Notes under the pieces: model-generated
What the model saw: only the letters and a program-made list of their open reading frames with translations
Database searches by the model: none
What the model was told of the DNA's origin: nothing
In this document: positions 10,776 through 50,057 of the stretch, piece after piece
Position numbering within the stretch: position 1 is the stretch's first letter
How the letters are laid out: every line of letters begins with the position of its first letter
Translations under genes and position numbers: made by a program
DNA from: Chloroflexota bacterium
Lineage (GTDB): Bacteria; Chloroflexota; Limnocylindria; QHBO01
Reading direction: 5' to 3'
Assembly (NCBI GenBank): GCA_038040195.1
Contig: JBBPIR010000001.1
Span: 489,141 to 553,140 of the forward strand
Length of the DNA: 64,000 nt

Positions 10776-10899
10776 GGATGAGCATCACGCACTTCCTCGA
10801 TGGCGACTAGCCGATTCGTGCGCGTTGACACTGTCGTGGGATTGACCGTGACGACATGATTGCGCCCGGCACGGCCGGCCTCGGAGAGCTGGCGACCGT

Positions 10900-12654: not shown

Positions 12655-12678
12655 CGCGCTCGCGTAGGTAGATAGAGC

Positions 12679-12694
12679 GGTCCGAAGTTACCGG
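12679..12694 (+). repeat. Third copy of the GGTCNGAAGTTRCCGG motif, upstream of the GH130 gene
   Basis: GGTCCGAAGTTACCGG. With its flank it shares 18/19 nt with 8722-8740. Here CGAAGT/ACTTCG also form a 6-bp hairpin. The motif is followed by TAGACT at 12725-12730 and the ATG at 12739. Confidence 0.6.
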
Positions 12695-12738
12695 ACTTCG
12701 TCGAACCCGCCGACCGAGCCGGTCTAGACTCACTGCCA

Positions 12739-13710
12739 ATGTCCTCCGGCCGCGCCCTTTTCACGCGCTTTCCCGGTAATCCGATCATTCGTGCAGCCGA
12801 CCTTCCCTACGACGCGAACGCGGTCTTCAACCCGGGCGCAGCCGAGGTCAACGGTGAGACCGTCCTTCTCCTTCGCGTGGAGGACCTCCGCGGCATCAGC
12901 CACCTCACCGTTGCCCGCAGCCGGGACGGGGTCAGCGACTGGCGAATCAACAGTGAGCCGAGCTTGCGCTCCGCCCCGGTGCGGTACCCGGAGGAGGTGT
13001 GGGGCATCGAGGATCCGCGGCTGACGTGGCTTGAGGAGATGCAGGCCTGGGTGATCGCCTACACCGCCTACAGCCGGCGCGGCCCGCTCGTCTCCTTTGC
13101 ACGCACGGCCGACTTCCGATCCTTCCGGAGGTTTGGCGCGGCGCTTCTGCCGGAGGACAAGGACGCCGCCCTGTTTCCGCGGCGATTCGGCGGCCGATGG
13201 GCGGTCATCCACCGTCCGACGCCGGTGCACGGGAACGCGAGCATGTGGATCTCCTATTCGCCCGACCTACGCCACTGGGGCGATTTCAGCCTGCTCCTCG
13301 AGCCACGCGAGGGCGCGTGGTGGGACTCGGCCAAGATCGGGCTGGGACCCCCGCCGCTGGAGACCCCCGAGGGCTGGTTGGTCATGTACCACGGTAGTCA
13401 TCTCACGGCCAGCGGCGCCCTGTACCGGACTGGGCTCGCCCTGCTCGATCTCGAGGACCCCAGGACCGTCCTGCGACGCAGCGACGAATGGGTGATCGGG
13501 CCGACTGAGCCCTATGAGCGGGTCGGCGACGTGGGCGGCGTCGTCTTCCCGTGCGGCTGGGTGCTGCATCGGGCGACCAACGAGCTCCGCGTGTACTACG
13601 GCGCAGCCGATACGTCCGTCGCGCTCGCCACCGCGCGCCTGGACGATGTGCTCGAGTACCTGCGCAGCTCCCCCCGGCCGACGCCGCAGAGGCGCCGGGT
13701 GCGCCTCTAG
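12739..13710 (+). CDS. GH130 family glycoside hydrolase/phosphorylase (beta-mannoside-type)
   Basis: 323 aa. NPGAAEVNGETVLLLRVED, GIEDPRLTW, AYTAYS and DKDAALFPRRFGGRW patterns of GH130. Confidence 0.8.
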   Translation: MSSGRALFTRFPGNPIIRAADLPYDANAVFNPGAAEVNGETVLLLRVEDLRGISHLTVARSRDGVSDWRINSEPSLRSAPVRYPEEVWGIEDPRLTWLEEMQAWVIAYTAYSRRGPLVSFARTADFRSFRRFGAALLPEDKDAALFPRRFGGRWAVIHRPTPVHGNASMWISYSPDLRHWGDFSLLLEPREGAWWDSAKIGLGPPPLETPEGWLVMYHGSHLTASGALYRTGLALLDLEDPRTVLRRSDEWVIGPTEPYERVGDVGGVVFPCGWVLHRATNELRVYYGAADTSVALATARLDDVLEYLRSSPRPTPQRRRVRL

Positions 13711-35649: not shown

Positions 35650-36009
35650 ATGGACCAGACCGGGCTGCTCTACGTCCTGGGATTCGGCTTCGCCGCCACG
35701 ACGTTCGTGTTCGGCACGATTCTGTTCTCGTGGCTGATCACGCATCGGCGCAAAGAGGCCCAGAAGGGGCTGCCCTACGAGTGCGGGATCGACACCATCG
35801 GTGACACCTGGTCCCGCTTCGGGCTGGCGTTCTACCTGTACGCCCTGCTGTTCGTGGCCTTCGACGTGGAGATCATCTTCATCTACCTCTGGGCGATCGT
35901 GATTCGCGACCTCACGCTCACCGGCATGATCCTGATGGGGATCTTCCTGGTGGTCCTGATGTACGGCGAGTTCTACGCCTGGAAGAAGGGTGACCTGAAA
36001 TGGCGATAA
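35650..36009 (+). CDS. nuoA: NADH-quinone oxidoreductase subunit A
   Basis: 119 aa, 3 TM helices, PYECG motif. Confidence 0.9.
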
Positions 36010-36629
36010 CAACCGCTCCCCGAGCTGACGAGCCGATCGTCATCCCCGACGCGGCCGGCGACGATCCGCTGCTGGGCGAGTTCGGGATGGAGAACCACCC
36101 CCAGGGTGGGTTCCATGGCCTGCTGGAGGTCATCCCCACCCGGGCCGATTACATCCTGGACCTGATCCGGGCCAACTCGCTGTGGCCGCTCCTGTCCGGC
36201 CTGTCGTGCTGCGCCATCGAGATGATGAGCACCGCCACCAGCGTCAACGACATCGACCGATTCGGGATGTTCCCGTTCCGCGCCTCGCCGCGCCAGGCTG
36301 ACGTCCTGATCGTGGCCGGCACCCTGACCACCAAGATGGCCGGTCCGCTGGTGCGCCTGTGGCAGCAGATGCCGGAGCCCAAGTGGTGCGTCGCCATGGG
36401 CACCTGCACCACCTCCGGCGGACGCTTCAAGCGCAGCTACAGCGTCGTCCAGGGCGTGGACCGGGTCATGCCGGTCGACGTCTACGTGCCGGGTTGCCCG
36501 CCGCGCCCCGAAGGCCTGATCTACGGGCTGATGAAGCTCCAGGAACTGGTCAAGCAACGCCGCGGCCAGTGGGCCACCTATGCCGACCGGGGTCCGGACC
36601 TCCGATCCTGGGAAGGAGACGTGCGCTGA
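36000..36629 (+). CDS. nuoB: NADH-quinone oxidoreductase subunit B
   Basis: 209 aa. N2 ligand pattern SCCAIEM, CVAMGTC, GCPPRP. Confidence 0.95.
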
Positions 36630-37204
36630 GCGCACCGGCCGCGGCGGGCCCGCTGGTCCGGCTGCTGGGCGACCGGCTCGCCGACGCGGCGAGCGAACTG
36701 TGGACCGACGAGGACACGGTCGAGATCCAGGTTCCCCGCGACAAGATCGTCGATTCGCTCCGCACCCTGCGCGACGACGCGGACTTCGGCTTCTTCTTCC
36801 TGGCCGATGCGGCCGCGGTCGACTACGGGGTCGGCAACTGGTTCGAGGTCGTCTACCACCTGTACTCGGACCGCCACCCCACCTGGCTGCGGGTCCGGGT
36901 CAAGGTTGACCGCGAGAATCCGGTGACGCCCAGCATCACCTCGCTGTGGGAAGGGGCGATGTTCCACGAGCGCGAGATGTACGACATGATGGGCATCGTC
37001 TTCGAGGGCAACCGCGACCTGCGGCGGATCTACATGTCGCCGGACTACCGGTCCTTCCCGCAGCGCAAGGACTTCCTGCTCCCCGATGACGCCGCCGATT
37101 CCGCCGCCGCCGGCAACCGCCCGCTGGAGCGGCCCGAGACCTGGGACCTGAGCAAGCTGGCGGACGCCGCCGCGCACCGCGACGAGCCGGGAGGCCCGGT
37201 GTGA
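36626..37204 (+). CDS. nuoC: NADH-quinone oxidoreductase subunit C
   Basis: 30-kDa subunit pattern ([28 protein letters not shown]). No ATG/GTG/TTG is available in frame near the N-terminus. CTG at 36626 overlaps the nuoB stop as CTGA, with GGAAGGAG 7 nt upstream. Confidence 0.8.
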
Positions 37205-38484
37205 CGACCACCAAGCCGCCGCAAGCTGAGGACGCGGAGGAGCCACGCTCCGACGAGCCGCGCATCCCCGACCCGCTGGTATTGGACGCCATGGCCACCG
37301 GCGCGCCGCGCCAGGAGTTCTTCGGCTTCGACATCGTCCCGCCCCCCGACCGGCCGCCCCAGACCGAGCGCGAGCAGGAGGTCTACACCCTCGGCGACGG
37401 CGAAATGCTCGTCAACATGGGCCCCCAGCACCCCTCCACCCACGGCGTGATGCGCCTGGTGGTCAAGGTCCGCGGCGAGGTGGTCATCGACATCGACCCT
37501 GTGCTCGGCTACCTGCACCGAGGGATCGAGAAGCTGTGCGAAGAGGCCACCTACACCACGGTCCTGACCTACGTGGACCCCATGGACTACATGTCGGCCA
37601 TGCACAACGAGCACGCGCCGGCGATCGCGTTCGAGAAGCTGTACGGGATCCAGGCACCGCGCCGGGCGGAGTACATCCGGGCCCTGGTGGTCGAGCTGAA
37701 CCGGGTGTTCAGCCACGGCCTGATGATGGGCTTCCTGGCGCTCGACATCGGCGGCCTGACTCCCATCCTGTACGGCTTCATCAACCGCGACGAGGTGGTC
37801 GAGATGCTGGCCGCCATCTCCGGCCAGCGGATGCTGTTCAACTTCTTCCGAGTGGGCGGCGTGAACTTCGACACCAATGACGAGTTCATGTCGCGCCTCG
37901 GCCGATGGCGGGCCAACGTCCTGGACAACGTCGAGATGAACGAGAAGATCCTGACCGATAACGAGATCTTCCGGGCTCGGACCAGGGGGATGGGCACCCT
38001 GAGCGGCAAGGAAGCGATAGCTCTGGGGGTCAGCGGACCCAATCTGCGGGCCAGCGGGGTGCCGTTCGACGTCCGCAAGGCCCACCCGTACTGCATCTAC
38101 AACGAGCTCGAGTTCGACGTCATCACCCACACCGAGGGCGACACCTATGCCCGCTACATGCAGCGCATCGCGGAGCTGAAGCAGTCCATCCACCTTATCG
38201 ACCAGATCGTGGACAAGATGCCCCACGGCCCGGTCCAGGCCCAGGTGCCGGGGATCATCCGCCCTCGCCCCGGACGCGCCTATGCGGCCATCGAGTCGCC
38301 CCGTGGGCTGTACAGCGTGTACGCCATCAGCGACGGCGGCCCGAACCCGTATCGGTTCCGCATGCGCGACCCGAGCTTCATCAGCCTGCAGGTCATGCCC
38401 AAGCTCATGCCCGGGCACCTCATCGCCGACACCATGGCGATCATGGCCAGCCTGGATCCGATCATGGGCGGCGTGGACAAGTAG
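37201..38484 (+). CDS. nuoD: NADH-quinone oxidoreductase subunit D
   Basis: 427 aa. NMGPQHPSTHGV, and the C-terminal SLDPIMGGVDK. GTGA overlap with nuoC. Confidence 0.95.
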   Translation: MTTTKPPQAEDAEEPRSDEPRIPDPLVLDAMATGAPRQEFFGFDIVPPPDRPPQTEREQEVYTLGDGEMLVNMGPQHPSTHGVMRLVVKVRGEVVIDIDPVLGYLHRGIEKLCEEATYTTVLTYVDPMDYMSAMHNEHAPAIAFEKLYGIQAPRRAEYIRALVVELNRVFSHGLMMGFLALDIGGLTPILYGFINRDEVVEMLAAISGQRMLFNFFRVGGVNFDTNDEFMSRLGRWRANVLDNVEMNEKILTDNEIFRARTRGMGTLSGKEAIALGVSGPNLRASGVPFDVRKAHPYCIYNELEFDVITHTEGDTYARYMQRIAELKQSIHLIDQIVDKMPHGPVQAQVPGIIRPRPGRAYAAIESPRGLYSVYAISDGGPNPYRFRMRDPSFISLQVMPKLMPGHLIADTMAIMASLDPIMGGVDK

Positions 38485-38493
38485 GGGGCCGAA

Positions 38494-39513
38494 ATGGATC
38501 CGGCGACCATCGAAACCCTGCTCGGCGTCGGCCGTTTCGTGGCGGCAACGACCCTGCTGCTGCTGCTGACCGTGCCGACCGCGTTCATCGTGGGCCAGCT
38601 GGAGCTGAAGATCATCGCCCTCATGCAGCTCCGCTACGGCCCCAACCGGGTCGGCCCGCGCGGGATGTTCCAGAGCGCGATCCACGGCTTCAAGATCCTG
38701 GCCAAGGAGGACCAGACGCCGGATCGAGCCGACGTCCCGGTCTTCACCCTGGCGCCGTGGATGGTGTTCATGGCGGCCGCCATGAGCATGCTGGTCATCC
38801 CGTTCGCCCCGGGCCTTGTGGCCTTCGACTCCGACATCGGCGTCATCTACTTCTTCGCCATCATCGGTCTGTCGGTGGTCGGGATGCTGGTCGCCGGTTG
38901 GGCCAGCTACAACAAGTACGCGCTGCTGGGCGGGCTGCGGAGTGCGGCCCAAATGGTCAGCTACGAGATCCCGTTGACCCTGTCCATCGTGGGCGTGGTG
39001 GTCCTGACCGGGACGTTGTCGTTCACCCACATCGTCGAATGGCAGCTGGAGCACGGCTGGGCGGTCATCTGGCAGCTGGTCGGCTTCCCGATCTTCTTCA
39101 TCGCCGCCGCCGCGGAGATCAACCGCACCCCGTTCGACATGGTGGAGGCCGATTCGGAGATCGTGGCCGGCCCGTTCACCGAGTACTCGGGCATGCGATT
39201 CGGTTTCTTCTATTTTGCGGAGTACGTCGCACTTTTCATCATGTGCGGCATCCTGGTCACCCTCTTCTTCGGCGGGTGGCTGGCGCCGTGGCCCTTCCCG
39301 GCCCAGCTGGACGGCTTCGCCGGCACCGTCTACGGCCTGGTCTGGTTCTTCCTGAAGACGTACATCTTCGTGTTCATCGCGATCTGGGTGCGGGCTACCC
39401 TGCCCCGCGTGCGAGTCGACCAGCTCATGGGCATGGCCTGGAAGGCGCTCCTCCCGCTGGCGCTCATCAATCTGTTCGTGACCGCCGCGGTGGTCCTGAT
39501 CTTCAAGCTGTGA
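38494..39513 (+). CDS. nuoH: NADH-quinone oxidoreductase subunit H
   Basis: 339 aa, polytopic. EIVAGPFTEYSGMRFGFFYFAEY motif. It follows nuoD directly, the gene order of 11-subunit-type operons. Confidence 0.95.
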   Translation: MDPATIETLLGVGRFVAATTLLLLLTVPTAFIVGQLELKIIALMQLRYGPNRVGPRGMFQSAIHGFKILAKEDQTPDRADVPVFTLAPWMVFMAAAMSMLVIPFAPGLVAFDSDIGVIYFFAIIGLSVVGMLVAGWASYNKYALLGGLRSAAQMVSYEIPLTLSIVGVVVLTGTLSFTHIVEWQLEHGWAVIWQLVGFPIFFIAAAAEINRTPFDMVEADSEIVAGPFTEYSGMRFGFFYFAEYVALFIMCGILVTLFFGGWLAPWPFPAQLDGFAGTVYGLVWFFLKTYIFVFIAIWVRATLPRVRVDQLMGMAWKALLPLALINLFVTAAVVLIFKL

Positions 39514-39524
39514 TGGCCTGACAC

Positions 39525-40373
39525 ATGGCGATCCCCGGCTCCGGCCTGCTCACCGGCATGGGCGTCACCCTGCGCAACCTCTTCCGCCCCAAGGTGACGC
39601 AGCAGTACCCCGAGGTGCGCCCCGCCATGGCGGAGCGTTGGCGGGGTCGGCTGGACCTGATCTACGACCCGTTCGGGGAGCACAAGTGCGAGGTCTGCTT
39701 CCAGTGCGCCATGGTGTGCCCGGTGGAAGCCATTGACATGAGCGGCTTCGACTCGCAGGGCAACAAGATCCGATACGGGCTGCCCGAGATCTACGACGAG
39801 CGCCGGGACCCCAACGCCTTCCGACGGGCCGGCCTTCCATCCAGACCGATGCGCAACGCGGCGCGCTGGGAGGAAGCGGTAGATGACGCCTGGGTCGACC
39901 AGGTCGTAGATGGATTTGGCGGGCGTCCGGAGTCGCTGGTGGCCATCTTCGTCGCGGTCCAGACCCGATACGGGTACCTGCCCGAGCCCGCGTTGCGCCG
40001 GATCAGCGACAGGATGACGATCCACTGGGCCCAGGTCTTCGGGGCTGCCGGGCTGGGCGGCTTCCGGCTGCTGCCGACCGAGGGGCACCTGGTCACGGTG
40101 TGCGACTGCGCCGCGTGCCGCTTCGCCGGAGGCGACAAGCTCCTGGCGGCCCTGGAGGAGGAGCTGGGGGTACGGGCCGGGGAGACGACCGATGACGGCG
40201 CATTCACCCTGGAGACCGATGCGAGCGTGGGAGCGGGCGCGATTGCGCCGGCGGTGCGGATCGACACCCTGGTATACGGGCCGCTCAACGTCGACGAGGC
40301 ACGCCACCTGATCTACGCCCGGCGGGCGGAGAAGTCCCGCGCCGAGAAGCTCGGCGCCGGGGCGAGCGCCTGA
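39525..40373 (+). CDS. nuoI: Fusion: N-terminal half of NuoI (one 4Fe-4S motif only) + diverged NuoE-like thioredoxin-fold domain
   Basis: 282 aa. Residues 1-~95 are NuoI-like (QYPE...RWRGRLDLIYDPFGEHKCEVCFQCAMVCPVEAIDM). Residues ~120-270 are NuoE-like (VCDCAAC retained; the second Cys pair reads SVGAGAIAP). Confidence 0.8.
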   Translation: MAIPGSGLLTGMGVTLRNLFRPKVTQQYPEVRPAMAERWRGRLDLIYDPFGEHKCEVCFQCAMVCPVEAIDMSGFDSQGNKIRYGLPEIYDERRDPNAFRRAGLPSRPMRNAARWEEAVDDAWVDQVVDGFGGRPESLVAIFVAVQTRYGYLPEPALRRISDRMTIHWAQVFGAAGLGGFRLLPTEGHLVTVCDCAACRFAGGDKLLAALEEELGVRAGETTDDGAFTLETDASVGAGAIAPAVRIDTLVYGPLNVDEARHLIYARRAEKSRAEKLGAGASA

Positions 40374-41719
40374 TGGCGGCCGGCCTCTCCCCGCAGATCC
40401 GGATCCTCCCCGGCGGGGAGCACCGCCTGCTGGCCGGGATCGGGAAGCTGGACCCCGAGTCGCTGGCTGCGTACCGCAAGGCCGGTGGCTACCGCGGCCT
40501 GACCCGCGCCATCACCAAGCTCTCCCCCGACGAGGTCATCACCGAGATCTTCGCGTCCCGCCTCCGCGGCCGAGGGGGCGCTGGGTTCCCGGTGGCCGAC
40601 AAGTGGCGCGCCACCCGTTCCGCCCCCGGTGAGCGGAAGATCGCGGTCGCCAACCTGATGGGCGCCGACCCGACATCGCTGGGGGATCGGGCGCTGGCCG
40701 AGGGCAACCCCCACCTCGTCCTGGAGGGGCTGCTCATCGCCGCCGCCGCGGTGGGGGCCTCGGAGGCCATTCTGGCCGTGCGGCGCGACTGGACCGCGGG
40801 CATCGAGCGCCTCCGCAAGGCGGCGGCGGATGCCGAGGCCGCCCACCTGGCGGGCTACCTCATCCTGGGCACCGACGTATCGGTCCAGGTGTCGGTGTGG
40901 GAAGGCTCCGGCGCCTACGTGGCGGGGGAGGAGACGGCCCTCATCCACGCCCTCCAGGGCGACCGCGGCATGCCGCTCATCCGCCCCCCGTATCCTGCCG
41001 CGCGCGGGCTGTGGGGCGTCCCGACGCTGGTCCACAACGGCGAGACCCTGGCCCACGTGGCCTGGATCCTGGGCCACTCGGCAGGCGACTTTGCCAAGGT
41101 CGGGCCCGAGGAGGCGCCGGGCACCAAGCTGGTCACCATCGCCGGCGCGGTGCGCAACCCGGGTCTGGCGGAGGTCGCGATGGGCACCGTGGTCGCCGAC
41201 ATCGTCAAGCTGGCCGGCGGGTCGACCGGGACCGTGAAAGCCGCGTTCGTGGGTGGACCGGGTGCCGGCGCGCTGGCTGCCAACGAACTGTCTGACACGG
41301 GCTACGAATACGGCGCGCTGGGCGCCGCCGGCGCTCACATCGGTTCGGGATCGGTCCTGGTCACCGACGCCGCCACCTGCATGGTGGCCACCGCCCGCTT
41401 CCTGCTGGACTACTCCGCGCGCGAGGCATGCGGAAAGGCCGTCCCGTGCCGGATCGGTCCGTTGCGGCTGGTTGAGATCCTGGACCGCATCCTGGCCGCC
41501 ACCCCGCGCCCCAACGACCTGGTCCTGCTGCGCGAGCTGTCGGCCAAGATCGCCGACACCGCCCTGTGCCGCCTCGAATCGCTCGCCCCCAAACCCATGC
41601 TCACCACCCTGGATCGCTTCGAGGACGAGTACCGCGCCCACGCCGAGCGGGGCGTTTGCCTGGCGGGCTCGTGCAAGACGGACCCGGTCTCCCCGTTGCT
41701 GGCGCCGCTGGCGTCATAG
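40373..41719 (+). CDS. nuoF: Diverged NuoF-like flavoprotein subunit
   Basis: 448 aa. RLRGRGGAGFP and GSGAYVAGEETAL are conserved. The NADH-pocket loop reads NLMGADPTSLGDR. The N3 motif reads ACGKAVPC, with the middle Cys missing. Confidence 0.8.
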   Translation: MAAGLSPQIRILPGGEHRLLAGIGKLDPESLAAYRKAGGYRGLTRAITKLSPDEVITEIFASRLRGRGGAGFPVADKWRATRSAPGERKIAVANLMGADPTSLGDRALAEGNPHLVLEGLLIAAAAVGASEAILAVRRDWTAGIERLRKAAADAEAAHLAGYLILGTDVSVQVSVWEGSGAYVAGEETALIHALQGDRGMPLIRPPYPAARGLWGVPTLVHNGETLAHVAWILGHSAGDFAKVGPEEAPGTKLVTIAGAVRNPGLAEVAMGTVVADIVKLAGGSTGTVKAAFVGGPGAGALAANELSDTGYEYGALGAAGAHIGSGSVLVTDAATCMVATARFLLDYSAREACGKAVPCRIGPLRLVEILDRILAATPRPNDLVLLRELSAKIADTALCRLESLAPKPMLTTLDRFEDEYRAHAERGVCLAGSCKTDPVSPLLAPLAS

Positions 41720-41729
41720 GATTGGACCG

Positions 41730-44114
41730 ATGACCTTCGCAGGCAACGGCAACGGGAAAGGCAACAGCAGCATGGTGGGGCCCTTCGAGGACTACGCCCC
41801 CATCTGGCCGGTGGTGCCCGGCACGCGCAAGATTACGGTCACGATCAATGGCCGCCAGGTCCAGGCCGAGGAGGGCCAGACCATCCTCCAGGCCTGTCGG
41901 GTGCTTGGGCTCGAGATCCCCACCCTGTGCTACGAGCCCAAGCTGTCCCCGTACGGTGCCTGCCGGATCTGCGTGGTCGAGGTGGACGGCCAGGACAACA
42001 CGCCCATCTCGTGCGGGACCGACCTCGCCGAGGGGATGGTCATAACCACCCACTCGGAGCGGGTCATCGAGAACCGCCGCCTGGTGCTGGAGCTGATCTT
42101 CTCGGACCACGACGCGTACTGCCTGCCGCCCTGCCAGTTCAAGTGCCCCACCCGGGTCGACATCCCCGGCTACCTGAAAGCCAACGCGGAGGGCAACTGG
42201 GAAGAGGCGACCCGCATCCTGAAGCGCTCGCTCCCCTTCCCGGCCATCCTGGGTCGGGTGTGCCCCGCCCCCTGCGAGACCCACTGCCGGCGCGAAGAGG
42301 TGGACACCGCCATCGCCATCCGCGACTCGCATCGGTACTGCGCCGACCGGGTCCTGGAGGTGGACGCGCCGGCCCCGCTGCCGTGGCCCAAGGAATCGGA
42401 CACCGGGCGCCGGGTGGCGATCGTCGGTTCAGGGCCCGCCGGCATGACGGTGGCCTACTACCTCCAGCTGCGCGGGCATCACTGCGACGTGTTCGAGGCC
42501 GATCCCGAGCAGGGGGGAATGCTCCGCTACGGGATTCCCGAGTACCGCCTGCCCAACGGCTGGATGGACCGCGAGCTGAACCACGTCTGGGAGCTGGGCG
42601 CCACCTTCAAGCCGAACATGCGCCTGGGCCGCGACTTCCACCTGGCCGATCTGGTGGAGCAGGGCTACGACGCCATCTTCGTGGGCATCGGCTGCTACAA
42701 GCCCAACGAGATGGGGATTCCCGGCGAGGACGCCGACGGGACCGTCAACGCGCTGGAGAACCTGTACAACAGCACCCGCGGCATCCCGGTTCCCGCCCTG
42801 AAGGGGGCCAGCGTGGTGGTCATCGGCGGCGGCTTCACGGCCATCGACTGCACCCGGACCTCCCTCCGCCAGGGCGCAGCCGAGGTCAACCTGGTGTACC
42901 GCCGTGACCTGAAGGACATGCCAGCGCAGGACGAGGTCCACGAGGCCGCCGAGGAAGGCGCCAAGGTCACCTTCCAGGCCGCGCCGGTCCGCATCGTGAC
43001 CGATGCCAAGGGCAAGGTGACCGGGGTCGAGTTCCAGAAGATGCACCTGGGCGAGGCCGATGAGAAGGGCCGGCGCCGGCCGGAGCCCATGCCCGGCACC
43101 GAATTCATCATCGAGTGCGACACGGTCCTGGGTGCCATCGGCCAGGGGCCGGAGCTGGCGTGGATCGACTCCGAGCCCGATGAGATCCGCTCCGGGCTGG
43201 AGGTCAGCCGCCAGGGGCGTCTGGTGGCCGATGCGAACACGTTCCGCACAGGCATCCCCAAGATCTTCGCCGCCGGCGACGTGAACCTGGGGGCCACCAC
43301 CGTGGTGGAGGCCATCGGCGACGGTCGGCGGGCGTCGTATGCCATGGACTACTGGCTCCGCGGCCACGACCTGGACGACCCGCAGGTGCGGCGCATGGTG
43401 TCCGAGCCGCAGCCCTCGTTCCTGACCATCGTGCCCTTCACCGACGACGTGAAGGAGCCCCAGGCGGTGATGGGCAAGCTGGGCGCTGAGGAACGGCGCA
43501 CGAACTTCGAAGAGTACGAGCACGGCTACACCCACGACCAGGCCATGGGCGAGGCCGCCCGCTGCCTGCAGTGCACGTGCGAGGCGATTGGCCACTGCGA
43601 CCTGCGCGAGGCGGCCATCGAGTACGAGACCACCCTGAACATGACGATCGACGAGCGGTCGATCCAGGACAACCCGTATGTCGGCATCAACCACGGCTAC
43701 GGCCGGGACGAGACCCACTCGTTCATCCTGCGCGATTACTCGCGCTGCATCGATTGCGGCCGATGCGCCCAGGTGTGCAAGGACATCGTGGGCGCCGGGT
43801 GCTACGACTTCATCGGAAAGGGCTTCGACTCGCTGGTTACGACCGCCGATTACGTCTCGTTGAACGAAACGCCGTGCGTGTCATGCGGGCGGTGCGCGGA
43901 GACGTGCCCGGTGGGGGCGCTCATGCCGCGGCCGCGGATCCTGGAGACGTACCAGCTCGACGTGAGCCGCTGCATCTTCTGCGGCATCTGCGCCGACGCC
44001 TGCCCCTACGACGCGCTCCGCTGCGGCCCGGAGTTTGAGTTCAGCGAGTACCAGCGCGACCTGCCCATGCTCGACATCCTCGAGATGTCCGACCGGGAGC
44101 GCCCCACCCGCTAG
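41730..44114 (+). CDS. Multidomain Fe-S flavoprotein: NuoG-type 2Fe-2S domain + GltD-like FAD/NAD(P)H oxidoreductase + ferredoxin motifs + C-terminal half of NuoI
   Basis: 794 aa, with the ATG at 41730. Motifs are CYEPKLSPYGACRICVVEV...SCGT; CLPPCQFKCP and GRVCPAPCETHC; VAIVGSGPAGMTVAYYL; VVVIGGGFTAIDCTRTSLRQGAAEVNLVYRR; RCIDCGRCAQVC; and CVSCGRCAETCPVGAL. The protein ends with RCIFCGICADACPYDALRCGPEFEFSEYQRDL. No molybdopterin-like domain is present. Confidence 0.8.
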   Translation: MTFAGNGNGKGNSSMVGPFEDYAPIWPVVPGTRKITVTINGRQVQAEEGQTILQACRVLGLEIPTLCYEPKLSPYGACRICVVEVDGQDNTPISCGTDLAEGMVITTHSERVIENRRLVLELIFSDHDAYCLPPCQFKCPTRVDIPGYLKANAEGNWEEATRILKRSLPFPAILGRVCPAPCETHCRREEVDTAIAIRDSHRYCADRVLEVDAPAPLPWPKESDTGRRVAIVGSGPAGMTVAYYLQLRGHHCDVFEADPEQGGMLRYGIPEYRLPNGWMDRELNHVWELGATFKPNMRLGRDFHLADLVEQGYDAIFVGIGCYKPNEMGIPGEDADGTVNALENLYNSTRGIPVPALKGASVVVIGGGFTAIDCTRTSLRQGAAEVNLVYRRDLKDMPAQDEVHEAAEEGAKVTFQAAPVRIVTDAKGKVTGVEFQKMHLGEADEKGRRRPEPMPGTEFIIECDTVLGAIGQGPELAWIDSEPDEIRSGLEVSRQGRLVADANTFRTGIPKIFAAGDVNLGATTVVEAIGDGRRASYAMDYWLRGHDLDDPQVRRMVSEPQPSFLTIVPFTDDVKEPQAVMGKLGAEERRTNFEEYEHGYTHDQAMGEAARCLQCTCEAIGHCDLREAAIEYETTLNMTIDERSIQDNPYVGINHGYGRDETHSFILRDYSRCIDCGRCAQVCKDIVGAGCYDFIGKGFDSLVTTADYVSLNETPCVSCGRCAETCPVGALMPRPRILETYQLDVSRCIFCGICADACPYDALRCGPEFEFSEYQRDLPMLDILEMSDRERPTR

Positions 44115-44155: not shown

Positions 44156-44560
44156 ATGACCGATCTTCCCCAGCAGCCGATCGAGATGATCCTGCTCCGC
44201 CAGCTGTCGGAGCACCTGTCCATTCCGATGTGGGTCATCGACGGCGAGGGGGATCTCGTCTTTTTCAACGAGGCGGCCGAGCCGACCCTCGGCGTGCGGG
44301 CCGACGACGTTGACCAGATGCCGTTCGAGACCTGGACCACGTCCTTCCGGCCCCGGGATCTATCGGGCAATCCGCTGCCGCCCGAGGCGCTGCCCCCGAT
44401 CATCGCGCTGCGAAAGGGGGAACCGGCCCATGCCACGATCGAGATCACGGGCGGGGATGGGGTCGCGCGCCGGATCGGCGTCACCGCCTTCCCGCTGACC
44501 GGCGGCCACGGCGACATCATGGGCTCGGTGACGATGTTCTGGGAGTCCCCCAAGGCGTGA
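44156..44560 (+). CDS. Stand-alone PAS domain protein
   Basis: 134 aa. PAS-like pattern (IPMWVIDGEGDLVFFNEAAEPTLG ... GVARRIGVTAFPL). Located inside the nuo operon. Confidence 0.65.
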   Translation: MTDLPQQPIEMILLRQLSEHLSIPMWVIDGEGDLVFFNEAAEPTLGVRADDVDQMPFETWTTSFRPRDLSGNPLPPEALPPIIALRKGEPAHATIEITGGDGVARRIGVTAFPLTGGHGDIMGSVTMFWESPKA

Positions 44561-45402
44561 TCGTCCGTCTGTGGGGCACCCGCGGGTCGGTGGCGGCCGC
44601 CGGCCCCCAGACCGCGCGCTATGGCGGCAACACGGCCTGCGTGGAGGTGCGCGGCGACGATGGGACGCTGCTCGTCCTCGACGCGGGGACCGGCATCCAG
44701 CGCCTGGGCGCTGAGGTCGCGATGGAGGCGGGGCGGATCGACATCCTGCTGACCCACCTCCACATGGACCACATCCAGGGCCTGGGCTTCTTTGCCCCGA
44801 TCTTTCGCCCCGGCTGCGAGATCCACATCTGGGGTCCGCCCTCGCCGACGCTCCATCTGCGCGCCCGCCTGACGCGCTACCTCTCCCCGCCCCTGTTCCC
44901 CATCCGCTTGCGCGACCTGCGTGCCAACTTCGACTTTCACGATGCTCCACAGGAGCCGTTCCGGATCGGTCCATTCACCATCCTGGCCGATGAGGTCATC
45001 CATCCCGGCGCGACCCTCGGCTTTCGGGTCAGCGAGAACGGCCGTTCCCTGGCCTACCTGAGCGACCACGAGCCGGCGCTCGGGACGGGGAACGGAGATG
45101 GCAACACATCCTGGGTGAGCGGGCTGCGCCTGGCGCGCGGGGCGGACGTGCTCATCCACGACGCCCAATACACGAACGAAGAGCGTGCCGAGCGGCTGGG
45201 CTGGGGCCACTCATCGGTCGGCGAGGCCATTGCCTTCGCGCGCCGCGCCCAGGTCGGCAAGCTGGTCCTGTTCCACCACGATCCGGCACGAACCGACGAT
45301 CAGATGGACGTCCTGGCCATGGCGGCCGCGGACCTGGCCGCGTCCACCGCCAACGGCCTGCAGGTGACCGCCGGGCGCGAGGGCGATCAGCTCTTGCCGT
45401 AG
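44557..45402 (+). CDS. MBL-fold metallo-hydrolase
   Basis: 281 aa. HLHMDHIQG (HxHxDH) and the later LFHHD. 4-nt overlap with the PAS gene. Confidence 0.8.
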   Translation: MIVRLWGTRGSVAAAGPQTARYGGNTACVEVRGDDGTLLVLDAGTGIQRLGAEVAMEAGRIDILLTHLHMDHIQGLGFFAPIFRPGCEIHIWGPPSPTLHLRARLTRYLSPPLFPIRLRDLRANFDFHDAPQEPFRIGPFTILADEVIHPGATLGFRVSENGRSLAYLSDHEPALGTGNGDGNTSWVSGLRLARGADVLIHDAQYTNEERAERLGWGHSSVGEAIAFARRAQVGKLVLFHHDPARTDDQMDVLAMAAADLAASTANGLQVTAGREGDQLLP

Positions 45403-45432: not shown

Positions 45433-45975
45433 GTGAGCGCTCGGTCTCGAACGGGAGCCTCGACTCTGGACATCTCGACCGTCCTCTTCGTGGTGCTCGC
45501 CGCCGGCGTCCTCGGCGGCGGCCTGGCGGCCGTCCTGCTGCGGAACGTGATCCATTCCGCGGTGGCCATGATGGTCTCTTTCGGAGCCCTGGCGGGCACG
45601 TACGCCCTGCTCGGCGCGCCCATCGTGGCCGCCGCCCAGGTCCTCATCTACCTGGGGGCCATCAGCGTCCTGATCCTGTTCGCGATCATGCTGACCCAGG
45701 CCGGCGACGCCAACCTGCCGGCACCTTTCCAGCGCCAGGCGCCGTTCGCGGCCCTGGTCGCCATCGGGATCGTGGCCCTCGTCGGTTGGGCCCTGCTCCA
45801 GACCGACTGGCCCAACCCCAGCGTGATCATCCCGGTCGAGCTCGACGCCCTGGCCGCCGCCCTCTTCAACGACTACGCGCTGCCGTTCGAGATCGTGGGC
45901 TTCCTGTTGCTGGCCGCCATCATCGGCGCCATCTACCTCGCCCGACGGCCCGAAGAAGACGAGCGGATGAACTGA
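45433..45975 (+). CDS. nuoJ: NADH-quinone oxidoreductase subunit J
   Basis: 180 aa, 5 TM helices, NVIHSAVAMMVSF pattern. The GTG start is uncertain and lies in the 3-prime arm of a 9-bp hairpin (45410-45433). Confidence 0.85.
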   Translation: MSARSRTGASTLDISTVLFVVLAAGVLGGGLAAVLLRNVIHSAVAMMVSFGALAGTYALLGAPIVAAAQVLIYLGAISVLILFAIMLTQAGDANLPAPFQRQAPFAALVAIGIVALVGWALLQTDWPNPSVIIPVELDALAAALFNDYALPFEIVGFLLLAAIIGAIYLARRPEEDERMN

Positions 45976-45978
45976 CCG

Positions 45979-46287
45979 ATGGGCCTCAACGGCTACCTGT
46001 TCCTGTCACTCGCCCTGTTCGGGATCGGGGCCTTCGGCTTCCTGGCCCGACGCAACGCGATCATGATGCTGATCTGCATCGAGCTCATGTTGAACGCGGT
46101 CAACCTGGCCCTGGTGGCCTTCAACGCGTTCGATTATTACGCCACCGATGACGCGGGCGCCGTCTTCTCGCTGCTCGTGATGGCCGTCGCGGCAGCCGAG
46201 GCGACGGTCGGCCTGGCCCTGGTCATCGCGATCATCCGCACCCGTCAGACCGCCGAGGTCGACGACTACGCCGATCTGAAGGAGTAA
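45979..46287 (+). CDS. nuoK: NADH-quinone oxidoreductase subunit K
   Basis: 102 aa, 3 TM helices, conserved membrane Glu (ICIELMLNA, AAEATVGLA). Confidence 0.9.
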   Translation: MGLNGYLFLSLALFGIGAFGFLARRNAIMMLICIELMLNAVNLALVAFNAFDYYATDDAGAVFSLLVMAVAAAEATVGLALVIAIIRTRQTAEVDDYADLKE

Positions 46288-46291
46288 CGCG

Positions 46292-48529
46292 CTGGACCTG
46301 CAGTCGCTCGTCGCCCTGATCCCGGCCCTGCCGCTGGCCGGCTTCCTGTTCGCGGTGCTGGTTGGGCCGCGCTTCGACCGCATTCCGGAGCACGCCGAGC
46401 ACGATGACGAGCACGGCGCCGGGGCCGGTCACGACACGGGCGGCGACGCGCACGCCTCCCACGCCGAGGCGGTCGACGAGTCCGGGTACCGCGGCGTCCC
46501 GACCGAGGAGGAGCAGCGCGAGACCTCGCCCCACCGGGGCCACGCCGACGACCTGGCCAACGCCAACGGGGCCGATGGGATCATCCCCGACGAGCTGAAC
46601 GACGGGCGCGGGCAGCCCGGTCACGTGACGCCCGGCGGGCCGCGGCCGGTCTACCGCTCGTGGTGGGTCCCGGTCGCATTGGTGGCCGTGGCCTGGGCCG
46701 CGTCAATGGCCATCTTCGGCGCGGTCATCTTCGGAGGCGCCGAGTACCGGGTCACCGTCTACGAGTGGATCGTGTCGGGTGATTTCCGGATCGAGATCAC
46801 GTTCTTCGTGGACGCGCTGACCGCGGTCCTGCTGCTGGTGGTCAGCACGGTGGGCCTGCTGGTCCACGTCTATTCCATCGGCTACATGGACGGCGACCGC
46901 AGCGTCTGGCGCTTCTTCGCCTACCTGAACCTGTTCATGTTCAGCATGCTGCTGCTGATCCTGGCCGACAACTTCCTGCTCCTGTACGTGGGCTGGGAGG
47001 CGGTCGGCCTGTGCTCGTACCTCCTCATCGGCTACTGGTACAAGAAGCCGTCCGCGGCAGGAGCCGCCAAGAAGGCGTTCATCGTCAACCGGGTCGGCGA
47101 CTTCGGTTTCGGGCTGGGCGTGATCCTGATCTGGACCCTGCTCGGCACGCTGACGTTCGACGAGGTGTTCGCGGGGATCGGCGGCCTCGAGGGCTGGCAG
47201 ATCACCCTCATCGCCCTGCTCCTGTTCGCAGGGGCAGTGGGCAAGAGCGCCCAGTTCCCGCTGCACGTCTGGCTCCCGGACGCGATGGAGGGCCCCACCC
47301 CGGTCAGCGCCCTCATCCACGCCGCGACCATGGTCAACGCCGGGGTGTACCTGGTCGCCCGCGCCAACCCGATCTTTGCCCACTCGCCGGAGGCAATGGG
47401 CGTGGTGGTCGCGATCGGGGTGTTCACCGCCGTCCTGGCGGCGGCCATTGCGGTCACCCAGAACGACATCAAGAAGGTGCTGGCCTACTCGACCGTCAGC
47501 CAGCTGGCGTACATGTTCTTCGGGCTGGGGATCGGGGCCTGGGCGGCGGCCATCTTCCACCTGCTGACCCACGGCTTCTTCAAGGGCCTGCTGTTCATGG
47601 CTTCCGGATCGGTCATCCACGGGGCCGGCGGGGAGCAGGACATGCGCTTCATGGGCGGCCTCCGGGAACGCATGCGCTGGACGTACGGGACCATGCTCGT
47701 GGGGGCCCTGGCGCTGGCCGGGATCCCGATCTTCGCGGGGTTCTTCAGCAAGGACGAGATCCTGTCGGAGGCCTTCGCCCGCGGCTACCCGATCTACTGG
47801 GCGGTGGGCATCGGGGTCGCGTTCCTGACCGCGTTCTACACCTTCCGGATGATCTTCATGACCTTCCACGGCTCGTGGCGCGGGCCGGCGGCCGCCTGGA
47901 AGCACGTCCACGAGAGCGCGCGGACGATGGTCGCGCCGCTCGTCATCCTGGCCGTCCCTACCGCGCTGGCCGGGCTCCTGCTGGGCATTCCGCCCGAGGG
48001 CGGCACGATCCATCTGTGGCTGGAGGAGGTCTTCGCCAGTGCTGAGGGGCTCGGGGCCGGTATCCAGCCCGGCTCGATCCTGGCGGAGGCCATGGAGCAC
48101 GGGGAGGCGCACGGCTTCGAGCTGTTCGGCCTTGGCGGGCTGCTGCTGCTGGCCGGGGCGTCGGTCGGCCTGGCCGGCATCCTGCTCGCCCGGCGCTGGT
48201 ACATCCAGGATCCCGAGGCGCCCGCGCGTTTTGTGGAGCGCTTCCCGTTCGGGCTGGGGCCGGGCATGTACCGGGCCAGCCTGAACAAGTACTACTTCGA
48301 CGACCTGTACCAGCTCATCTTCGCTCGCGGCGGCGTGGTGCTTTCAAATGCCCTGTGGTGGTTCGACGTGAAGGTCATCGACGGGGCGGTGAACGGCGTC
48401 GGCTGGTTGGCCCAGCGCCTGGGCGGCGGGTTGCGCAGGTCCCAGACCGGGCGGGTCCAGAACTACGGATTGGGGATCGCGGCCGGGTTGGTCATCGTCC
48501 TGCTGGTCTATGCCACGGTGGTGCGCTGA
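46292..48529 (+). CDS. nuoL: NADH-quinone oxidoreductase subunit L with a ~93-aa His/Asp/Glu-rich insertion after TM1
   Basis: Antiporter-like core (WEAVGLCSYLLIGYW, SAQFPLHVWLPDAMEGPTPVSALIHAATMV). TM1 (LVALIPALPLAGFLFAVLVG) is only encoded if translation starts at CTG 46292. GAAGGAG lies 7 nt upstream of that codon. Confidence 0.85.
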   Translation: MDLQSLVALIPALPLAGFLFAVLVGPRFDRIPEHAEHDDEHGAGAGHDTGGDAHASHAEAVDESGYRGVPTEEEQRETSPHRGHADDLANANGADGIIPDELNDGRGQPGHVTPGGPRPVYRSWWVPVALVAVAWAASMAIFGAVIFGGAEYRVTVYEWIVSGDFRIEITFFVDALTAVLLLVVSTVGLLVHVYSIGYMDGDRSVWRFFAYLNLFMFSMLLLILADNFLLLYVGWEAVGLCSYLLIGYWYKKPSAAGAAKKAFIVNRVGDFGFGLGVILIWTLLGTLTFDEVFAGIGGLEGWQITLIALLLFAGAVGKSAQFPLHVWLPDAMEGPTPVSALIHAATMVNAGVYLVARANPIFAHSPEAMGVVVAIGVFTAVLAAAIAVTQNDIKKVLAYSTVSQLAYMFFGLGIGAWAAAIFHLLTHGFFKGLLFMASGSVIHGAGGEQDMRFMGGLRERMRWTYGTMLVGALALAGIPIFAGFFSKDEILSEAFARGYPIYWAVGIGVAFLTAFYTFRMIFMTFHGSWRGPAAAWKHVHESARTMVAPLVILAVPTALAGLLLGIPPEGGTIHLWLEEVFASAEGLGAGIQPGSILAEAMEHGEAHGFELFGLGGLLLLAGASVGLAGILLARRWYIQDPEAPARFVERFPFGLGPGMYRASLNKYYFDDLYQLIFARGGVVLSNALWWFDVKVIDGAVNGVGWLAQRLGGGLRRSQTGRVQNYGLGIAAGLVIVLLVYATVVR

Positions 48530-48530
48530 C

Positions 48531-50057
48531 ATGAGCGGCCTGCCGGTGCTGTCGCTGATCGTCTTCACGCCGCTGCTCGGCGTGGCGGCCCTGCTGTTCG
48601 TGCCGGGCACCAACCATCGGCTCATCCGCTGGGTGGCCCTGCTGGCGGCCATGGGAAGCCTGGGCTTCAGCCTATTCCTGGTGGGCTACGACCCCGCCGG
48701 GGCGGAGTTCCAGTTCCGCGAGGACCTTCCCTGGATCAGCGCATTCGGGATCCGCTACCAGCTGGGGGTGGACGGCATGAGCGCAGTGCTGGTGCTGCTC
48801 ACCACGGTCCTGAGCGTGGTCAGCATCCTGTACTCCTGGGGGCCGATCCAGATGCGGGTCAAGGAGTACTACGCCGCGATGCTGCTCCTGATGGCCGGCA
48901 TGCTCGGCGTCTTCGTGGCGCTCGACCTGTTCGTGTTCTACGTTTTTTGGGAGCTGAGCCTGATCCCGATGTACCTGGTGATCGGGATCTGGGGTGGGCC
49001 GCAGCGCATTTACGCCACGCTGAAGTTCGTCATCTACACGCTGGTCGGCTCGCTCCTCATGCTGGTCGCCATCCTGGCCGTGGTCATCGCCAACGCCAAC
49101 CTCCCGGGCGGGACGTTCACGTTCAGCTACGAGGCCCTGCGCGGCGTCCCCTTCCCCGATCTGCTCCAGGCTGGCGCATTCATCGCGTTCGGGCTGGCCT
49201 TTGCCATCAAGGTACCGATGTGGCCGTTCCACACCTGGCTGCCCGATGCTCACGTGGAGGCCCCGACCGCGGGCTCCATCATCCTGGCCGGGGTCCTGCT
49301 CAAGCTGGGCGGCTACGGGTTCCTGCGATTCAGCCTGCCGCTGCTGCCCGACGCGGCCCAGTCCTTCGCGCCGCTCATGATCGGCCTGGCCTTGATCGCC
49401 ATCATGTATGGCGCGCTGGTGGCCATGGTCCAGCCCGATCTGAAGAAGCTGATCGCCTACTCGAGCGTGTCGCACATGGGCTTCGTGATGCTGGGGGCGT
49501 TCGTCTTCAACACCCAGGGCCTGCAGGGCGCGATCTTCCAGATGGTCAGCCACGGGATCACGACCGGCGCCCTGTTCCTCTTGGTGGGCGTCATCTATGA
49601 ACGCACCCACGACCGGCTGATCAGCCACATGGGCGGTCTGAACGCCCGCCTGCCGGCCTACGCCGCCCTGTTCGGGCTGTTCACCTTCGCGAGCATCGGC
49701 TTACCAGGCTTGTCGGGGTTCGTGGGCGAGTTCCTGGTCATGCTCGGCGCTTTCCAGTACTCGGCCTGGGTGGGGGCCTGGGCCATGCTGGTCGTGATAG
49801 CCAGCGCGGTCTACATGCTGTGGATGTTCCAGCGCGCCTTCTTTGCCGTGCCGTCGGACTGGATGCGCCGGGCCTGGGGCGGCCTGCATGACCTGACCCG
49901 GGTCGAGTGGCTGTCGCTGGCCCCACTGGTGGTCCTGGTGGTGGCACTGGGGGTGTTCCCGGCCCCCGTCCTGGAGGCCACCGCCGGGCCGGTGCAGCGC
50001 ATCCTCGACGCGGTCCAGGGCGCCGCGGGGCTCAACCTGGTCGCCTGGCCGTGGTGA
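48531..50057 (+). CDS. nuoM: NADH-quinone oxidoreductase subunit M
   Basis: 508 aa, antiporter-like (FAIKVPMWPFHTWLPDAHVEAPTAGS). The ATG lies 1 nt after the nuoL stop. Confidence 0.95.
   Translation: MSGLPVLSLIVFTPLLGVAALLFVPGTNHRLIRWVALLAAMGSLGFSLFLVGYDPAGAEFQFREDLPWISAFGIRYQLGVDGMSAVLVLLTTVLSVVSILYSWGPIQMRVKEYYAAMLLLMAGMLGVFVALDLFVFYVFWELSLIPMYLVIGIWGGPQRIYATLKFVIYTLVGSLLMLVAILAVVIANANLPGGTFTFSYEALRGVPFPDLLQAGAFIAFGLAFAIKVPMWPFHTWLPDAHVEAPTAGSIILAGVLLKLGGYGFLRFSLPLLPDAAQSFAPLMIGLALIAIMYGALVAMVQPDLKKLIAYSSVSHMGFVMLGAFVFNTQGLQGAIFQMVSHGITTGALFLLVGVIYERTHDRLISHMGGLNARLPAYAALFGLFTFASIGLPGLSGFVGEFLVMLGAFQYSAWVGAWAMLVVIASAVYMLWMFQRAFFAVPSDWMRRAWGGLHDLTRVEWLSLAPLVVLVVALGVFPAPVLEATAGPVQRILDAVQGAAGLNLVAWPW

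Follow-up and report, generated by a model that had tools for sequence, protein, structure and literature searches.

Few bioenergetic machines have been studied as much as complex I, whose 14 core subunits count as fixed building blocks. One of them, NuoI (also Nqo9, TYKY or NDUFS8), is to our knowledge a single polypeptide in every described complex I. Lineage-specific input modules on conserved Q- and P-modules are represented by FpoF (F420H2 dehydrogenase) and NdhS/V/O (cyanobacterial NDH-1); these dock non-covalently on an intact NuoI, FpoI or NdhI, and we know of none among them that shares an iron–sulphur domain between two polypeptides. Members of the Bfu family are the other relevant relatives. 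NfnABC and StnABC are electron-bifurcating NADPH:NAD/ferredoxin transhydrogenases (PMC11829005, PMC10482914), and Schut et al. (2022) predicted 'Nuo-Bfu', 'Mbh-Bfu' and 'Por-Bfu' enzymes (PMC9304861). Nuo-Bfu was described as a 14-subunit A–N cluster with an intact NuoI in Deferribacteres, Proteobacteria, Planctomycetes and Nitrospirae, and was proposed to confurcate NADH and ferredoxin (PMC9304861). Degli Esposti (2015) described Mbx-like operons with a GltD-related flavoprotein in place of NuoI (PMC4758237). Here we analyse a nuo operon in which the conserved core of NuoI is divided between two proteins of a three-gene cassette. It lies in a stretch of 64,000 nucleotides (nt; hereafter the window; 1-based coordinates) of a Chloroflexota bacterium (GCA_038040195.1, contig JBBPIR010000001.1, positions 489,141–553,140 of the forward strand).

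Two complementary halves of NuoI

The three cassette proteins (hereafter P1, P2 and P3) are encoded between nuoH and nuoJ, which is the canonical position of nuoI. The proteins and the parts of them that match NuoI are as follows:

39525..40373, + strand: P1, 282 amino acids (aa)
39525..39773, + strand: P1 residues 1–83, NuoI N-terminal half; TIGR01971 positions 1–72 of 121, 55.0 bits
39774..39896, + strand: P1 residues 84–124, linker from the NuoI N-half to the NuoE-like domain; no family match
40373..41719, + strand: P2, 448 aa
41730..44114, + strand: P3, 794 aa
43935..44114, + strand: P3 residues 736–794, NuoI C-terminal half; TIGR01971, 50.5 bits alone

A preliminary description of this DNA held that P1 opens as NuoI with a single cysteine (Cys) motif and then becomes a NuoE-type domain, and that the missing half of NuoI forms the last ∼60 residues of P3. 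Profile searches bear out both points. P1 residues 11–83 align with positions 1–72 of the NuoI model TIGR01971 (E = 5.8e-15 for the fragment alone) and contain one CxxCxxCxxxCP motif (C55, C58, C61, C65 and P66), while the rest of the protein matches PF01257. The reading frame is continuous through the linker, and the other two frames after the N-half have stops and no Cys motif. P3 residues 736–777 align with TIGR01971 positions 71–112 and contain the motif C748-C751-C754-C758-P759; the last 59 residues alone match positions 73–112 (E = 1.4e-13), and their top eight matches are all NuoI models rather than generic ferredoxins. The two matches thus complement each other, with the boundary at model position 71/72. 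The break is located between the two Cys motifs of NuoI, and ∼4.1 kb of coding sequence separates the halves.

We then concatenated P1(1–83) and P3(736–794) in silico and scored the product against NCBIfam. It reaches 111.7 bits with TIGR01971 (positions 1–112, E = 1.6e-32), compared with 55.0 bits for the N-half and 50.5 bits for the C-half; the curated cut-off of 113.05 is reached by no single protein (P1 51.6–55.0 bits, P3 54.8 bits). The concatenation aligns to plant TYKY (7ar7_I residues 23–139) with a length difference of only two residues, and also to dozens of NDUFS8, NuoI and Nqo9 chains of solved structures. Jointly, the halves cover the conserved NuoI core from the N-terminal segment through the two CxxCxxCxxxCP motifs to the PxFE tail.

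P3 contains three ferredoxin-type motifs (starting at C673, C716 and C748), which agrees with the earlier tally of three in the large protein and one in the N-half protein. A complete, single-chain NuoI made of the motifs at 716 and 748 was considered and rejected: this tail scores 62.7 bits with TIGR01971, with the NuoI-specific part beginning after motif 716, and NF004536 aligns P3 714–777 over the two motifs at 45.6 bits versus 109.3 bits for the concatenation. The partner of motif 716 is motif 673, as judged from homology to the di-cluster domain in solved Stn/Nfn A subunits, and both motifs also match HydA and Nqo3 ferredoxin-domain profiles. A TYKY query against the 64-kb window finds only the half sites in P1 and P3; no single-polypeptide, two-motif NuoI is present there, and a second nuo operon or intact nuoI within the window was likewise rejected.

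A scan with each species represented by a single genome gave relatives in 335 species-level genomes, from which 80 loci were kept and inspected; with three loci of a second subfamily, these make up 83 Limnocylindria loci. The order nuoA-B-C-D-H-P1-P2-P3-(gap)-J-K-L-M-N is found in all 80 inspected loci (Candidatus Limnocylindria, Chloroflexota). The P1 fusion has hundreds of full-length homologs with 73–91% identity, and most of the named ones belong to Candidatus Limnocylindria or Chloroflexota. All 83 loci read through both fusion junctions where these are covered by the contig; long-read contigs of 0.4–2 Mb are among them. A sequencing or assembly artefact (frameshift, chimera or misjoin) has a negligible probability: the same junctions recur in all 80 independent loci, as far as the contigs cover them, and in hundreds of metagenome proteins, the frames are continuous and the alternative frames have stops.

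All eight NuoI Cys and both Pro residues are invariant in every one of the 83 loci that covers them. The NuoI C-half is 97–100% identical in 52 of 54 subfamily-1 loci (lowest 95.7%), and the N-halves are just 75–89% identical. Median identities across the operon place P3 (85.8%) second after NuoB (88.3%) and P2 lowest (69.8%). The split also occurs in distant lineages, represented by loci L084/L085 (GC content 59%, P1 26% identical), L086/L089/L090 (GC 68%) and L088 (GC 49%), and is kept across lineages with P1 identity of only 26–52%. Because these distant lineages have it, the split is older and wider than the window's clade.

In every lineage examined, the motif counts are odd in both partners (one in P1-type and three in P3-type proteins). 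Each cluster of a 2x[4Fe-4S] ferredoxin fold is bound by three Cys of one motif and the fourth Cys of the other. If the halves stayed apart, cluster ligation would be incomplete in both proteins, and because the 3+1 ligation crosses both motifs, the halves would have to assemble into one NuoI domain. Cluster N6a would then be bound by P1 C55/C58/C61 and P3 C758, and N6b by P3 C748/C751/C754 and P1 C65. The preliminary description had likewise argued that neither half is complete alone and that the two re-associate, which would tie the inserted module to the Q-module. Complementary profiles, additive scores and invariant Cys support this; the physical re-association into one N6a/N6b domain is predicted from sequence.

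The inserted cassette and its cofactor sites

Besides the two NuoI halves, the cassette encodes the following domains:

39897..40373, + strand: P1 residues 125–282, NuoE/HydC/NfnC-like thioredoxin-fold domain; PF01257 at residues 125–263
40373..41719, + strand: P2, NuoF/HydB/NfnB-like flavoprotein core; PF01512, PF10531 and PF10589
41826..42056, + strand: P3 residues 33–109, [2Fe-2S] domain of NuoG/HydA/NfnA type (A1/N1b equivalent); PF13510, aligned to 9bov_A from residue 2, Cys invariant
42123..43364, + strand: P3 residues 132–545, GltD-type domain; PF14691 and PF07992, PRK12814 555 bits
43563..43598, + strand: P3 residues 612–623, C-x2-C-x-C-x5-C motif, aligned to RCLECGCMDYFEC of 9bov_A; invariant in 67 loci
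43725..43922, + strand: P3 residues 666–731, 2x[4Fe-4S] ferredoxin-like domain (A3/A4 equivalent) with motifs C673 and C716; PF22117 at 666–731, TIGR02512 at 666–741

Sequence comparisons place this cassette nearer to the soluble bifurcating transhydrogenases NfnABC/StnABC (Bfu family) than to NuoEFG. For the NuoE part of P1, the best solved relatives are 9bov_C, HydC and NfnC/StnA. P2 is nearest to 9bov_B, 8oh5_B and NfnB among solved structures, with 381 bits against 9bov_B (residues 107–525 of 584) versus 266 bits against Aquifex NuoF. P3 residues 33–758 align to 9bov_A 2–699 with 567 bits, and also to StnC (8oh5_C) and NfnA (9n5u_A). Within P3, the GltD-type domain has predicted sites for two [4Fe-4S] clusters, flavin adenine dinucleotide (FAD) and NAD(P)H, with an LVYRRD signature common to 9bov_A; the C-x2-C-x-C-x5-C motif probably binds an A2-type cluster; and residues 666–731 have a collinear counterpart in the di-cluster domain of 9bov_A, 8oh5_C and 9n5u_A. 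P3 then carries the NuoI C-half where the Stn/Nfn A subunits enter a molybdopterin-type domain (its CxxCxxxC cluster first). BfuA-, BfuB- and BfuC-type subunits are thus encoded together, with GltD in the A subunit, and stnABC has the same order of genes, from NuoE-like through NuoF-like to the large subunit (PMC10482914). The label of an E/F/G-like cassette given in the preliminary description holds in so far as NuoE-, NuoF- and NuoG-type parts are present, but these are nearer to HydBC/NfnABC/StnABC than to the NuoEFG of complex I. The simplest history would be that a stn-type operon was inserted into an 11-subunit nuo operon, within the loop that separates the two motifs of nuoI.

We then focused on the cofactor sites. 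The minimal bifurcation site is [B1-FMN-C1], where FMN is flavin mononucleotide, and ferredoxin binds to the C-terminal domain of the B subunit (PMC11829005). In Stn, deletion of the NuoE-like [2Fe-2S] site abolished bifurcation and kept NADPH:viologen activity (PMC10482914). In P1, the second Cys pair of the C1 site is gone (ASVGAG versus ACLGCC in relatives): 80 of 83 loci have D, E, N, S, Q or G at position 234, and G or S, never Cys, occupies position 238 in every locus. The Bfu family's four-Cys [2Fe-2S] C1 site is thereby absent. So is the four-Cys [4Fe-4S] B1 site, the N3/B1 motif of P2 having three Cys (C353-x2-A356-x2-C359…C399, in C-G-K-A-V-P-C) with Ala at position 356 in 73 of 76 loci and Thr in the other three. 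P2 also lacks the HydB-type N- and C-terminal cluster domains and ends 12 residues past the core, leaving no ferredoxin-binding B3/B4 domain, and in its FMN/NADH pocket N-L-M-G-A-D-P-T-S-L replaces N-x-D-E-G-D-P-G-x-F in 79 of 79 loci. All 34 Cys of P3 are invariant or nearly so. Judged by these ligands, the machinery for bifurcation has degenerated in the window's lineage.

The distant lineages present a different picture. The canonical pocket, C1 and B1 are kept in L086/L090 and in L088, and L084 keeps C1 and has lost a different B1 Cys. This second kind of loss was seen at L084 2811–4217, which reads CGRCIPG where Limnocylindria have CGKAVPC or CGKTIPC, the other three Cys being invariant; a [3Fe-4S] cluster, a ligand other than Cys or decay may lie behind such losses. 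L086 9296–11550 and L090 5715–7507 encode a split NuoI N-half, a fully liganded NuoE [2Fe-2S] site, a HydB-type N-terminal domain, an intact C-G-K-C-V-P-C motif and a canonical flavin pocket, and both contigs stop before the large subunit. This form is less degenerate and may still bifurcate. In L088 (1321–6023), a HydB-like NuoF protein (1048 aa) carries GltD as a C-terminal fusion, and the NuoI C-half is on a 265-aa protein similar to HoxU and the NuoG N-terminus ([2Fe-2S], His-cluster and 2x[4Fe-4S]), with all bifurcation-type ligands intact. A homology search with this 265-aa carrier returned only two clusters of such short proteins, the remaining hits being ordinary NuoG/Fdh-like proteins.

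These sites bear directly on whether the window encodes a bifurcating or confurcating 'Nfn-complex I', in which, for example, NADH plus reduced ferredoxin, or NADPH, would reduce menaquinone with additional driving force. The cassette has homology to an enzyme whose bifurcation is proven, confurcating Nuo-Bfu complexes have been proposed (PMC9304861), and such a reaction may hold in L086/L090 and L088, which keep C1, B1, the HydB N-terminal domain and the canonical pocket. In the window's lineage, however, the C1 ligands are lost, B1 has three Cys, the B3/B4 domain is absent and only the flavin loop of the minimal flavobicluster is undamaged, while C1 deletion alone suffices to abolish bifurcation in Stn (PMC10482914). 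We therefore regard bifurcation as very unlikely here.

Our preferred reading, which we hold with moderate confidence, is a non-bifurcating, proton-pumping NAD(P)H:quinone oxidoreductase with an 11-subunit core, in which the split NuoI is reassembled and which is fed mainly through the FAD of the GltD domain. Under this reading (i) a Nfn/Stn-type three-gene cassette would sit inside nuoI, in the loop between its two Cys motifs, the N-half forming the N-terminus of the NuoE-like P1 and the C-half the C-terminus of the [2Fe-2S]-GltD-2x[4Fe-4S] protein P3; (ii) the shared N6a/N6b domain would hard-wire the input module to NuoB and NuoD; (iii) NAD(P)H, probably NADPH, would reduce the FAD of the P3 GltD domain; (iv) electrons would pass through the P3 iron–sulphur chain to N6a/N6b, N2 and quinone, driving proton pumping; and (v) P2 and the NuoE part of P1 would serve mainly as scaffold, or at best as a weak secondary entry for NADH. 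By sequence position, the P3 tail would replace the A5-bearing domain next to A4, and the docking geometry would differ from the canonical N5-to-N6a contact. The electron path, donor specificity and proton pumping are predictions from homology; NADPH has been seen bound to the StnC domain homologous to the P3 GltD domain, and the A-subunit clusters of Stn and Nfn connect FAD and FMN (PMC10482914, PMC11829005). The arrangement probably changes the enzyme's fuel.

Several observations weigh against this reading. The concatenation falls 1.3 bits below the curated TIGR01971 cut-off. No usable AlphaFold2 model supports reassembly: P3 with a 53-sequence alignment has a mean predicted local distance difference test score (pLDDT) of 58.7 and ∼25 over residues 559–794, too low to bear on motif pairing or the tail, and P1(1–83) + P3(736–794) as a single sequence has a pLDDT of 34. 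The absence of an intact nuoI holds for the 64-kb window, not for whole genomes. P2 keeps a Gly-rich FMN loop, a GEET motif and three invariant N3-site Cys, so that FMN and a [3Fe-4S]-like cluster may still be present in P2 and NADH may still be a substrate. The probable preference for NADPH over NADH at the GltD site is based solely on the YRR signature and homology.

The properties of P2 could instead indicate a dual-donor complex I, in which NADH enters at the P2 FMN through a three-Cys, possibly [3Fe-4S], N3-type cluster and NADPH at the P3 FAD, both flavins feeding the same chain to quinone; such an enzyme may also equilibrate the nucleotide pools. All loci conserve the GRGG[ASG]G[FYW]P loop, GEET and Cys353/359/399, P2 is retained as a full-length open reading frame (ORF) in at least 80 species, and FAD–FMN linkage through A-subunit clusters has precedent in Stn/Nfn (PMC10482914, PMC11829005). 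Its C-x2-[A/T]-x2-C…C motif resembles the classical [3Fe-4S] signature of 7Fe ferredoxins and succinate dehydrogenase. However, in 79 of 79 loci other residues stand in place of the acidic pair and the Phe of the flavin/nucleotide pocket, no protein of the operon is less conserved than P2, and the loss of a different N3 Cys in L084 (CGRCIPG) looks more like decay than a designed [3Fe-4S] site. We consider a dual-donor enzyme rather unlikely.

The purely predicted physical association and the restriction of the nuoI search to the window would be compatible with two separate enzymes or a relic, i.e. a soluble Nfn-like enzyme with remnants of NuoI and a membrane arm that is inactive or uses a NuoI from elsewhere. 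Strong purifying selection is evident, however, from the invariant Cys and from the near-identity of the C-half in 52 of 54 subfamily-1 loci (97–100%), and the odd motif counts would leave clusters incompletely ligated in both proteins. In addition, the split persists at 26–52% P1 identity, the genes are translationally coupled and the window contains no other nuoI. Separate enzymes are accordingly highly improbable, and the reassembled, GltD-fed complex I remains our preferred reading.

A comparable arrangement was observed in a pyruvate:ferredoxin oxidoreductase (PFOR) cluster of 'Por-Bfu' type (L087 8412–15933). Half of a NuoI-like motif region is fused there to the NuoE-like protein P0409, and the other half comes after a 2x[4Fe-4S] domain, in fusion with the beta (thiamine pyrophosphate) subunit of the PFOR; the halves correspond to NuoI model positions 22–66 and 69–118, and their concatenation scores 81.6 bits. 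P0291/P0409 were rejected as a further case of complex I, since they sit in a PFOR cluster. Bfu-type modules may in general be connected through a split di-cluster domain. Combining these observations, we tentatively entertain a broader and still doubtful scheme in which the split domain would be such a general connector, docking Bfu-type modules covalently onto complex I and onto the PFOR of L087, the Limnocylindria complex I would be NADPH-specific and proton-pumping with NuoE/NuoF as a pseudo-enzyme scaffold, and L086/L088 would encode a membrane-bound bifurcating or confurcating Nfn-complex I coupled to the proton-motive force.

The surrounding operon and its variation

The operon has the order nuoA-B-C-D-H-P1-P2-P3-(PAS, MBL)-J-K-L-M-N, is tightly packed and lies entirely on the + strand; this order and the coordinates given in the preliminary description agree with the ORF list and the profile matches. 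In addition to the cassette, it contains the following genes:

35650..36009, + strand: nuoA; ORF, operon head in loci reaching that far, PF00507 in orthologous loci
36000..36629, + strand: nuoB, carrier of cluster N2; TIGR01957 221.9 bits versus cut-off 142.7
about 36611..37204, + strand: nuoC; TIGR01961 115 bits, under the cut-off of 122.45 (stretch tested), start codon uncertain, syntenic in all loci
37201..38484, + strand: nuoD; NF004739 422.6 bits versus cut-off 360
38494..39513, + strand: nuoH; NF004741 324.5 bits versus cut-off 305, directly after nuoD as in 11-subunit-type operons
44156..44560, + strand: PAS gene, 134 aa; Pfam and NCBIfam matches
44557..45402, + strand: MBL-fold gene, 281 aa, RNase Z/cyclic-nucleotide phosphodiesterase-like; Pfam and NCBIfam matches
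45433..45975, + strand: nuoJ; ORF, synteny, PF00499 in orthologous loci
45979..46287, + strand: nuoK; ORF, synteny, PF00420 in orthologous loci
46355..48529, + strand: nuoL, antiporter-like subunit; ORF, PF00361 in orthologous loci
48510..50057, + strand: nuoM, antiporter-like subunit; ORF, PF00361 in orthologous loci
50065..51516, + strand: nuoN, antiporter-like subunit; ORF, PF00361 in orthologous loci

The genes for the complex I core (NuoA, B, C, D, H, J, K, L, M and N) are thus all in one cluster. The Q- and P-modules are ordinary, with NuoB, NuoD and NuoH above the curated NCBIfam cut-offs; the four N2 Cys (CC…C…CP) are visible in the NuoB translation, and NuoL, NuoM and NuoN show 25–27% mutual paralogy. 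At the cassette junctions, nuoH and P1 are separated by 11 nt, the P1 stop and P2 start overlap in TGATG, and P2 and P3 are separated by 10 nt; from this spacing, the cassette genes appear translationally coupled inside one operon. The NuoL N-terminus (window 46355–46690) has a His/Asp-rich extension of ∼110 residues ahead of the first transmembrane stretch. NuoL length is constant in subfamily-1 loci and ∼57 residues shorter in subfamily 2.

The PAS and MBL genes overlap by 4 nt and sit within the nuo operon between P3 and nuoJ. The pair is restricted to the closest relatives, with nuoJ directly after P3 in L042, L073, L075 and subfamily 2. The P3–nuoJ junction is a variable insertion spot, empty elsewhere or occupied by unrelated cargo (e.g. 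a HAD hydrolase in L013). PAS and MBL were considered as parts of the machine and rejected on this distribution: they are lineage-specific cargo outside the core architecture.

The second Limnocylindria subfamily has the same operon, with P3 ∼60% and P1 ∼37% identical. Its P3 (L081 10001–12628, P0217 and relatives) has an extension of ∼80 residues after the NuoI C-half with a Gly/His-rich end, and its NuoH is ∼120 residues longer (463 versus 339 aa). Loci L002, L014, L036, L044 and L079, whose P1 is 76–96% identical to that of the window and whose operon is the same, are filed under Pleomorphomonadaceae, Steroidobacteraceae or Zixiibacteriota metagenome-assembled genomes; these contigs are most likely mis-binned Limnocylindria.

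The other genes of the window form an ordinary aerobic-heterotroph set, including a sarcosine/dimethylglycine dehydrogenase-type protein (DAO + GCV_T) and an SdhA-type flavoprotein at 986–3424 and 10852–13710. No other NADH dehydrogenase was found within the 64-kb window.

Implications and comparison with known systems

If reassembly occurs as predicted, NuoI is naturally divisible and an N6a/N6b domain can be built from two chains, and a new dehydrogenase can be attached in evolution by operon insertion into a loop of a core gene. The electron donor of the 11-subunit complex I is a long-standing question, and for Limnocylindria, an abundant soil and freshwater class, the locus offers a testable answer, probably NADPH via a GltD flavoprotein. 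The lineages run from intact to degenerate bifurcation hardware and suggest how a bifurcating Nfn/Stn enzyme can become a plain dehydrogenase. Current annotations of the cassette proteins read 'NADH-quinone oxidoreductase subunit E', 'glutamate synthase small subunit-like' and 'formate dehydrogenase major subunit', and metabolic reconstructions of Limnocylindria in which nuoI serves as the marker of complex I would probably list the complex as incomplete.

We found no description of a NuoI divided between two polypeptides in the searchable literature, nor any complex I with this topology, as the preliminary description had supposed; a literature search joining Bfu, electron bifurcation and NuoI returned no paper. 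The words 'GltD' and 'split' are absent from the text of Schut et al. (2022; PMC9304861).

Compared with canonical NuoI/Nqo9/TYKY (NDUFS8), the conserved core and the locus are the same, but here the protein is broken between its motifs and the halves are fused to NuoE-like and GltD/NuoG-like proteins. NfnABC/StnABC (PDB 9bov, 9n5u and 8oh5) share the three subunit types and the gene order, and P3 is collinear with their A subunit through the 2x[4Fe-4S] domain. They are, however, soluble and bifurcating, whereas the window's cassette is embedded in a nuo operon. Their A subunit has a molybdopterin-type domain where P3 has the NuoI C-half, and their B subunit has N- and C-terminal cluster domains, both of which P2 lacks in addition to having three B1 Cys, the C1 ligands also being lost.

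Nuo-Bfu embodies the same concept, i.e. a Bfu module in place of NuoEFG in a nuo cluster, with predicted electron transfer to quinone and proton pumping, and the BfuABC genes in the window likewise replace NuoEFG in the middle of the cluster. By contrast, the window lacks the 14-subunit A–N set, the separate NuoI and the conserved BfuBC core (FMN + six clusters), most of whose cluster sites are lost; its module lies inside nuoI, has a GltD NADPH domain and is without the bifurcation site. The PRK13984 NuoI–GltD fusions share a GltD-type flavoprotein joined to a NuoI-type two-cluster domain, and PRK13984 matches P1 17–73, P3 135–545 and the concatenation (model positions 18–116). In those fusions, however, an intact NuoI-like domain is in one chain with GltD, there are no NuoE/NuoF-like or [2Fe-2S] subunits and the partner is Mbx/Mbh-like, whereas the window encodes a predicted quinone-reducing Nuo. 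In brief, a complex I with an alternative input module is known; what distinguishes the present locus is that a core subunit is split, that electrons probably enter from NADPH at GltD and that the bifurcation site has decayed.

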